In this document: piece after piece, positions 9,001 through 10,739 of the stretch
Layout: the number at the start of each line of letters is the position of its first letter
How positions within the stretch are numbered: position 1 is the stretch's first letter
Source of the DNA: a virus
Lineage: Duplodnaviria > Heunggongvirae > Uroviricota > Caudoviricetes
Strand: one strand, 5' to 3'
Virus record (IMG/VR): IMGVR_UViG_2703719365_000002
Length of the DNA stretch: 10,739 nucleotides
Program-made: the position numbers

Positions 9001-10739
9001 ATGTGAATGAGCTTGCCGAGCGATACATCAACGCAACTGAGCCGAAGCCTAGCGACAGCAGCATTACTGCATATAAAAGCCGCATGGAAAGTGCAATCAA
9101 AAAGTTTGTAGCTTTCCAGTCTGGTGAAGAAATCCCATACACTCCGATTGACAAAGAATCCAGTGAGGAAAAAGATTTGACTGGCGAACCAACAAAAGTC
9201 GAAGGCAAGGCTAATGCACTTCATACCTATGATCTTCCAGTAGTTCTTCGACCTGAATCAGGGGTTACAGTAACGATTAAAGGCATTCCTAACGATATCA
9301 CAAACGAAGAAGCCGAACGCATCTCTTCAATTCTGAAGGTTTACGTTCGGCCTCAATAATGCAAAAGCATTCAGCACAATGTCCAACTCCCCAGTCCGAC
9401 ATTGATGCTGTTTAACCAGAGCCTCCAAAAGGAGCCCTTGTTAAGGTACACAATATTTGCGATGTAACCTTAGCGCGTCTGGTACATTTTTTCAAGCGGT
9501 TGTAGGGCTGCCGCCAATATGAGAAAACACAGATGTCTACATACAATTTGAATGACCAATTCGATCGAGAAGTTCATGTGAATGCCTATGAACGGATAAG
9601 GCATGGAAATCTTGAACATGTGTGTGAGCATTATCGCTCAAGGCCACACCGCTAATCATCAACCCGGCCTCCATGCCGGGTTTTCTTTTCCTCTCGCCCA
9701 AAAAAACACATAACCAATTGTATTTATTGGAAAATAAATAGATACAACTCACTAAACAACGCAATTCTGATCTCTCCTTACATCGCCGAGGCAATACACC
9801 CACGCTAAAAAACAATACTATTAAATACAAAGCGTTGTAAAAAAACGCCCCGTTTTAGAACAAATTGTATTGACCAATTGAAGTACATATCGTACTATTT
9901 AACCATCAGCAGGACGCTGGAAGCCAAATGGAACAGACTGGCAGGCTCTTTAAACAACGTCGACTCTCGACTACGTGGCTGAAAAGCCAGATCACCCAAC
10001 CACATAAGCTGTGGGATGCAATGCCGAAGCAACCGTCTCAGGAGGAGCTTCGAGATTGCATCGCCAAAGTTTATTCGGGAGGAATCTATGTCCAGAAAAA
10101 CAGAATTTAAAGGCACCGCAGCTTCTCGCCGTAGAGCTCGTCGCGCAAACCTGCAAAGTCAGGAGGCGATTAGCTCCGACAAACTACACAGGCCAACCCC
10201 ATCACGAGTGGTCTTACAATGCAAACGCAAACCAGCAATGAGAGCAGAAGTAATAACACTGACAACGTTGACCAGAAAATATGAAGGCTCAACTTGTCTT
10301 CCAAATGTAGCTCTTTACGCGGCAGGCTACCGTAAATCCAAACAACTGACAGCAAGATGACTTGTGTTGGTCGCCAGAAAATGAAATTAGGCAGCAAACC
10401 ACTTATTTGAGGTGATATATGGAATTTCATGAAAGTGCGATTTGTGATTTTCGCGCTAACGCAAATTCAGTAAAACCACAGCCAATTGCAGTTCTTTTTA
10501 AAACAATGGGTGCGTGGGCTGTTTTATGCTTCGCCGCTGACGACACTGACGCAAGAATGGCAATAGGACAAGAGATGGAGATGGACCCGACAAACGATGA
10601 ATTCATAATTTATGGCGCTCCATCTAATTACTTACTTGATACCTGCAACATTTACAACAAGGCTGCCTGATGGTGGCCTTTATTTTTGGCATAAACAACA
10701 GAATAAACACAGCACTGTGTATTCATTCCAACGAGTGAA

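Follow-up and report, generated by a model that had tools for sequence, protein, structure and literature searches.

The 10-mer shared by predicted pL and pR is very probably part of the known VT2-Sakai-type operators

Among Stx phages, the repressor-operator systems of 933W and BAA2326 (O104:H4) have been characterised by footprinting, whereas the operators treated here are predicted; 933W has only two OL sites, five operators in all. For the VT2-Sakai type, "putative operator" features are annotated in GenBank AP005153, oligonucleotides for OR1-3 and OL1-3 of VT2-Sakai (VT2-SA) are given in PMC10742460 (Table S1), and PST1/Sakai operators are tabulated in PMC4587872 (Table S5, in which the numbering runs opposite to the gene positions), where the operator prediction is credited to Fattah et al. 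2000. The six sites described below are base for base the features of AP005153 and match both published sets, and are thus already known, having been predicted and annotated more than 20 years ago as VT2-Sakai-type operators. Our starting point was a sequence-only reading of this DNA, which had noticed an exact 10-mer at the same spacer position of pL and pR; that finding is correct but ordinary and adds nothing to the existing annotation of the immunity region, while natural variation now shows cleanly which operator positions are constrained.

The window is the whole stretch of viral DNA that was analysed (10,739 nucleotides, IMG/VR record IMGVR_UViG_2703719365_000002). Over bases 7300-10400 it shows 100% identity with Stx2-converting phage 1717 and Stx2a_WGPS4 and 99.9% identity with the Stx1 and Stx2-II phages of E. 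coli O157:H7 Morioka V526 and with "PA" Stx2a phages. Judged by its sequence, the window represents the immunity region of an Stx phage of the VT2-Sakai/1717 type. The switch it carries is lambda-type, of the VT2-Sakai (Sp5)/Stx2-1717/Stx1-Morioka type: cI and cro diverge from an intergenic region with three related dyads (OR1-3, 7594-7668), a second operator cluster (OL3-1, 9823-9897) overlaps pL (9870-9898), which reads into N (10088-10360), and the repressor joins an HTH N-terminal domain to a LexA-like S24 autocleavage C-terminal domain (Pfam). The cI N-terminal domain is 98.8% identical to that of VT2-Sakai (Sp5) and the six 17-mers are the same; the type is not imm-lambda, the operators showing no sequence kinship to TATCACCGCCAGTGGTA and the cI N-terminal domain being divergent from that of lambda, and homology to lambda DNA is limited to the cI C-terminal domain and a terminator block. 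OR DNA of this immunity type was found in 569 of 5426 complete E. coli genomes. The type is medically relevant, as it controls Stx2a prophage induction in E. coli O157:H7 Sakai and many relatives. Genes in the window follow a lambda-like order:

6913-7209, minus strand: cII
7351-7566, minus strand: cro, 71 aa, HTH_3
7683-8336, plus strand: cI repressor, with further in-frame ATGs at 7677 and 7641
8838-9359, plus strand: 173-aa ORF of unknown function
10088-10360, plus strand: N antiterminator, the pL-transcribed gene (Pfam N_peptide, E = 3.4e-32, full length)

This gene map, and a repressor with a non-lambda N-terminal domain, had been proposed beforehand, and both were borne out. Pfam places HTH_3 in the N-terminal part of cI (E = 1.9e-10) and Peptidase_S24 in the C-terminal part (E = 1.1e-28); the C-terminal 136 residues are identical to lambda cI at 135 positions, and the N-terminal domain matches the lambda repressor weakly (E = 4.5e-4 over the HTH). 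Between cI and Cro, identity is 35% over 62 residues and the recognition helices are nearly identical, TQGGIGHW in cI and TQGAIGHW in Cro (context GCTQGAIGHW). A longer annotated form of N starts at 10016, and inspection of the 3' end of N by eye for a -1 frameshift site showed no canonical slippery heptamer.

Promoter and leader elements are as follows:

7593-7621, minus strand: putative pR, TTGTAT-TTGAGAAGTACATATTG-TATTTT, 7/12 to consensus, with the same geometry to O1 as pL
7642-7670, plus strand: putative pRM, TGGATG-17-AATAAT, 8/12 to consensus, the best pRM candidate, its -35 annotated in AP005153
9870-9898, plus strand: pL, TTGACC-AATTGAAGTACATATCG-TACTAT, 9/12 to consensus, the best sigma-70 candidate upstream of N
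9904-9917, plus strand: CATCAGCAGGACGC, matching the lambda pL transcript start over 14 nt
9945-9953, plus strand: boxA-like element GCTCTTTAA, nutL-like, in the pL leader
9976-9989, plus strand: boxB-like hairpin TGGC-TGAAAA-GCCA, nutL-like, in the pL leader

The lambda pL start is at 35582. As CATCAGCAGGACGC begins 6 nt after the pL -10, the same distance as in lambda, pL transcription in the window likely starts at A9905. The boxA-like and boxB-like elements (9945-9989) were seen directly in the sequence and resemble the lambda nut sites; minimum free energy folding of the pL leader was uninformative on the boxB-like hairpin, which did not stand out (z = -0.87).

Both promoter sequences read as the sequence-only reading had them, TTGACC-17-TACTAT for pL and TTGTAT-17-TATTTT for pR, and AAGTACATAT fills spacer positions 6-15 in each. 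Its exact occurrences in the window are two, at 9881-9890 (plus strand) and 7601-7610 (minus strand), and with one mismatch allowed it has three matches against 0.52 expected. The run common to pL and pR is actually 11 nt long, GAAGTACATAT, and the two promoters set in register are identical at 19 of 29 positions. The near-palindrome reported around the pL copy, AGTACATATCGTACT (AGTAC-ATATC-GTACT), is present at 9882-9896 with zero mismatches to AGTACnnnnnGTACT.

Very probably, the 10-mer comprises the promoter-distal half-site and the centre of two members, the promoter-proximal sites OL1 and OR1, of a larger set of operators. A 17-bp dyad with the consensus AAGTACAnnnTGTACTT occurs in six copies, OR1-3 between cro and cI and OL3-1 upstream of pL and N, and its positions A5, C6, G12 and T13 are invariant across the six:

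7594-7610: OR1 operator, plus strand AAATACAATATGTACTT, in the pR direction AAGTACATATTGTATTT; holds the second 10-mer copy, 19.8 bits by position weight matrix (PWM), kept in 83/83 homoimmune loci
7626-7642: OR2 operator, AAATACACATTGTGCAT; centre 32 bp from OR1 (31-35 in relatives) and 26 bp from OR3, adjoins the putative pRM -35
7652-7668: OR3 operator, CAGTACAGAGCGTAATA; overlaps the putative pRM -10
9823-9839: OL3 operator, AAATACAAAGCGTTGTA; centre 33 bp from OL2 (32-34 bp in relatives)
9856-9872: OL2 operator, TAGAACAAATTGTATTG; overlaps the TTG of the pL -35, centre 25 bp from OL1, a spacing that is invariant
9881-9897: OL1 operator, AAGTACATATCGTACTA; runs from pL spacer position 6 to -10 position 5, PWM 18.8 bits, kept in 75/75 homoimmune loci

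The claim that the 10-mer marks the operator of the repressor therefore stands in that both copies lie in OL1 and OR1, but the recognition element is a 17-bp dyad present six times and not a 10-mer present twice. Five matches to ANTACRNNNYGTANT with at most one mismatch were found in the window, all of them in OR or OL, against 0.86 expected, and none of 200 shuffles reached five. By PWM the six sites score 14.4-19.8 bits and the next best match in the window 11.6, a separation that is partly circular as the matrix was built from the same six sites. OL1 and OR1 are the two strongest dyads, and OR2 is the weakest by sequence, with two mismatches to ANTACRNNNYGTANT; sequence alone does not separate OR2 from background. 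Centre-to-centre spacings are OL1-25-OL2-33-OL3 and OR1-32-OR2-26-OR3.

Two kinds of further candidate were considered as operators. Weak PWM matches of 11-12 bits at 9709-9725, 10433-10449 and 928-944 were treated as chance; 683R2 lacks the match at 9709-9725, which lies in a stretch of lambda homology downstream of rexB. An alternative OR2 nearer to OR1 (7614-7636, with the half-site-like AAATACA and AAGTAAA) was rejected: as a complete site it reaches less than 5 bits, and its bases are not constrained among homoimmune phages.

Natural variation was assessed by scanning viral contigs with the cI N-terminal domain, which yielded 80 loci where this domain is 96-100% identical; adding the window and two phage records brought the number of loci with OR intact to 83 and with OL intact to 75. 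The operator sites are kept in all of them, across 29 distinct OR and 34 distinct OL sequences. Substitutions in OR are confined to the degenerate positions 1, 3, 7-9 and 17, with OR2 varying at its centre only in the 29 OR variants, and changes in OL fall mostly at degenerate positions, with core bases altered in a few rare variants. Three inter-operator spacers, OR1-OR2, OL3-OL2 and OL2-OL1, vary strongly among homoimmune loci. Length is a separate matter: the OR2-OR3 distance is 26 bp in 83/83 loci and the OL1-OL2 distance 25 bp in 75/75, while OR1-OR2 ranges over 31-35 bp by way of a poly-A tract and OL2-OL3 over 32-34 bp. The exact 10-mer is common without being required; the 683R2 group has AAGTACAAATCGTACTA as OL1 and AAGTACATATCGTATTA as OR1.

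The same variation bears on the promoters. The promoter scan did not report pR at 7593-7621 (sigma-70 match 7/12), and an alternative pR lies 5 bp upstream (TTTACT-17-TATTGT, 7626-7598, 8/12). Within the variable OR1-OR2 gap of the 29 OR variants only CAA, the complement of the TTG in the pR -35, is invariant, its neighbours varying, which favours pR at 7593-7621 over the alternative; essentially the same pR is annotated in a Stx1-phage record. The O1 sites would overlap core elements of both promoters as predicted, the pL start having support from lambda homology and pR having an alternative 5 bp upstream. On the cI side, A7677, the first in-frame cI ATG, lies about 43 bp downstream of the OR2 centre and this ATG is conserved in all variants, so a leaderless cI mRNA, as in lambda, is possible.

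Three other explanations of the shared 10-mer were weighed against the six-operator reading. The one that survives best, although improbable, is that pL and pR are true paralogues, a promoter-operator unit having been duplicated and inverted or gene-converted, with the 10-mer as a relic of common descent; this is how the two had been described beforehand, as "paralogous promoter-operator units". Common descent would account for the identical 11-mer in identical register, for the 19 matching positions and for an O1-to-O3 span that is 58 bp at OL and at OR alike. The likeness, however, stops at the operator, and paralogy is unsupported beyond it: of 75 positions compared in register outside the 29-bp promoter, 25 match, roughly what random AT-rich DNA would give, and global alignments of OL against OR score 5 in direct orientation (P = 0.26) and 4 in mirror orientation (P = 0.44), neither significant against shuffles, which have a mean of 3.5 and a standard deviation of 1.8. 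The -35 and -10 hexamers of pL and pR differ and, like the flanks, do not align, and O2 is placed differently, 25 bp from O1 at OL and 32 bp at OR. In the 683R2 group, furthermore, OL1 and OR1 differ in their centres, which points to independent drift with the core kept.

A still less probable explanation is that Cro alone, or some other factor, binds the dyads and that cI recognises other sequences. It draws on the fact that binding of cI to these dyads is predicted from sequence, our literature search having turned up no footprinting, EMSA or ChIP work on the VT2-Sakai-type cI or Cro themselves, and on the footprinted repressor sites of BAA2326, which are weakly symmetric and not predictable by eye. 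The only binding measurements found are for lambda CI, which bound VT2-Sakai oligonucleotides with an apparent KD of 3.7-6.4 uM, weaker than its own sites (0.2-3.1 uM), a measurement that is uninformative on the cognate cI. Against this explanation, the recognition helices of cI and Cro are near-identical, the sites track the cI N-terminal domain across differing backbones (e.g. Lederbergvirus 683R2), and OR and OL hold no other conserved repeated motif. Chance agreement between AT-rich promoter sequences, the least probable explanation, is effectively refuted: shuffling the two 151-bp regions did yield a shared substring of 10 nt or more in 1.9% of cases and one of 11 nt or more in 0.4%, yet the chance of the same register in two 17-bp spacers is ~5e-6 (7 registers x 0.28^11, a calculated estimate and not a simulation), and the 10-mer belongs to a six-member dyad family and is conserved in homoimmune phages.

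Under the six-operator reading, cI dimers would bind the six dyads, and Cro is expected at the same sites, as in other lambdoid phages, because the two recognition helices are almost the same. OL1 and OR1 extend over pL and pR from position 6 of the spacer as far as base 5 of the -10, so that repressor bound there would exclude RNA polymerase, and the right end of OL2 would supply the TTG of the pL -35. The 10-mer would then have the same register in both because the first -10 bases of each promoter (TACTAT and TATTTT) come from the right half-site, (T/C)GTA(C/T)T. OR2 adjoining and OR3 overlapping the putative pRM would allow lambda-like autoregulation. The shared recognition helix and the lambda-identical C-terminal domain make binding by cI and Cro, cooperative and with OL-OR looping, likely.

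With OR1-OR2 at 32 bp, against 24 bp in lambda, and with a weak OR2, lambda-like OR1-OR2 cooperativity is not to be assumed. We consider it possible, though rather unlikely, that cooperative pairing at OR joins OR2 to OR3 and not OR1 to OR2, in which case the switch would be wired unlike that of lambda: pRM would be shut off at low repressor levels, which would agree with the "hair-trigger, low repressor" mode suggested for other Stx prophages. The invariant OR2-OR3 and OL1-OL2 lengths could, however, simply reflect constraints from pRM and the absence of a homopolymer tract there.

Compared with known systems, the locus shares with lambda three sites per operator, each a 17-bp partial dyad, an O1 that, on the promoters predicted here, lies over the spacer and -10, an O2 at OL that overlaps the -35, an OL-OR distance of about 2.2-2.4 kb, and conservation of the cI C-terminal domain (135/136) and of the pL start sequence. 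Lambda pR (TTGACTATTTTACCTCTGGCGGTGATAAT) and pL (TTGACATAAATACCACTGGCGGTGATACT) share a 12-mer, CTGGCGGTGATA, in register, with O1 beginning at spacer position 5, so that a shared in-register run is standard lambdoid design. The differences from lambda begin with the operators themselves, of consensus AAGTACAnnnTGTACTT here and TATCACCGCCAGTGGTA there. The cI N-terminal domain is divergent and without lambda's N-terminal arm, Cro is an HTH_3 protein with the recognition helix of cI, unlike lambda Cro, and the 173-aa ORF stands in place of rexAB. The sites are spaced 32/26 bp apart at OR and 25/33 bp apart at OL, where lambda has 24/23 and 24/20; the operator spacing is thus unlike lambda although the cooperativity domain is lambda-identical.

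The Stx phages 933W and BAA2326 have the same kind of switch, with three OR sites, but belong to other immunity types with unrelated operators (e.g. BAA2326 OR1, ATAACTGTGCGTAATG). Identity with these characterised Stx repressor systems was considered and rejected, the BAA2326 operators being unrelated and the five-operator arrangement of 933W different. The Salmonella P22-like phages SPN9CC, g341c and epsilon34, whose cI N-terminal domains are ~50% identical to that of the window, carry a related HTH (T[KQ]G[AG][IV]xHW); their half-site, ATACA-n5-TGTAT, is likewise related and occurs both in OR and upstream of N, in SPN9CC at places equivalent to those of the sites here. They differ in recognition-helix residues (Q to K/R, G to S/C) and in an OR spacing that is reversed, 24 then 35 bp, and are presumably heteroimmune. 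The phages of VT2-Sakai and Morioka V526 stand closest: AP005153 and the window differ at two points, one A of the poly-A tract to the left of OR1 and a single base of the pL spacer, and with six identical 17-mers and the same cI-cro-N arrangement, nothing of substance is different.

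The distance between OR1 and OR2, two of the three operators predicted between cro and cI, was 31, 32, 33 or 35 bp among the homoimmune phages (loci L005-L084), and that between OR2 and OR3 was constant at 26 bp in all of them. Poly-A length also differs among these phages at two OR tracts, and at position 7597 the window and AP005153, the GenBank record of an Stx1 phage, differ by one A.

7590-7597, poly-A tract left of OR1, length variable in homoimmune phages
7624-7628, poly-A tract between the pR -35 and OR2, length variable in homoimmune phages

The Salmonella phage SPN9CC, whose cI N-terminal domain is ~50% identical to that of the window, carries three ATACA-n5-TGTAT-like sites in its OR (2912-2987 of its locus), with the shorter gap (24 bp) before the longer (35 bp), an order reversed in the window, where 32 bp comes before 26 bp. 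Table S5 in Additional file 6 of PMC4587872 names the six Sakai-type operators in the order opposite to their gene positions, its 'OR1-3' being the sites adjoining N and its 'OL1-3' those between cro and cI. In AP005153, the pL region also carries the name 'maintenance promoter for CI'.

At the start of cI, in-frame ATGs at 7677 and 7683 are both kept in 29 of 29 OR variants, whilst AP005153 annotates the gene from the ATG at 7641 instead.

7665-7670, plus strand, putative pRM -10, from which transcription would begin at ~7677

This start suggests that cI mRNA from the putative pRM could be leaderless; on longer transcripts AAGGA (7671-7675) would act for the ATG at 7683.

Between cI and pL, an open-reading frame occupies the place of lambda rexAB, followed by DNA (9661-9776) with 87.5% identity to that immediately downstream of lambda rexB.

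8838-9359, plus strand, 173-aa open-reading frame
9661-9682, terminator-like hairpin within the lambda-like block, similar to t-imm

The 173-aa frame, a candidate for a gene expressed in the lysogen, had no match in a Pfam search, and its sole strong match was phrog_2602, a family without assigned function. A weak operator-like 17-mer within the lambda-like block (9709-9725) is probably fortuitous.

The 3' end of N overlaps a second block that reads in another frame (region 10336-10410).

10358-10360, plus strand, TGA ending the N open-reading frame (C-terminus ...YRKSKQLTAR, then stop)

From 10336 the -1 frame gives IQTTDSKMTCVGRQKMKLGSKPLI and a stop, the N C-terminus of the lambda/683R2 type. 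No canonical slippery heptamer was seen by eye at this 3' end, and the out-of-frame block could be a module-exchange remnant or an unrecognised frameshift product. The corresponding block is likewise out of frame in H-19B N, whereas in the Lederbergvirus 683R2 it is in frame with N.
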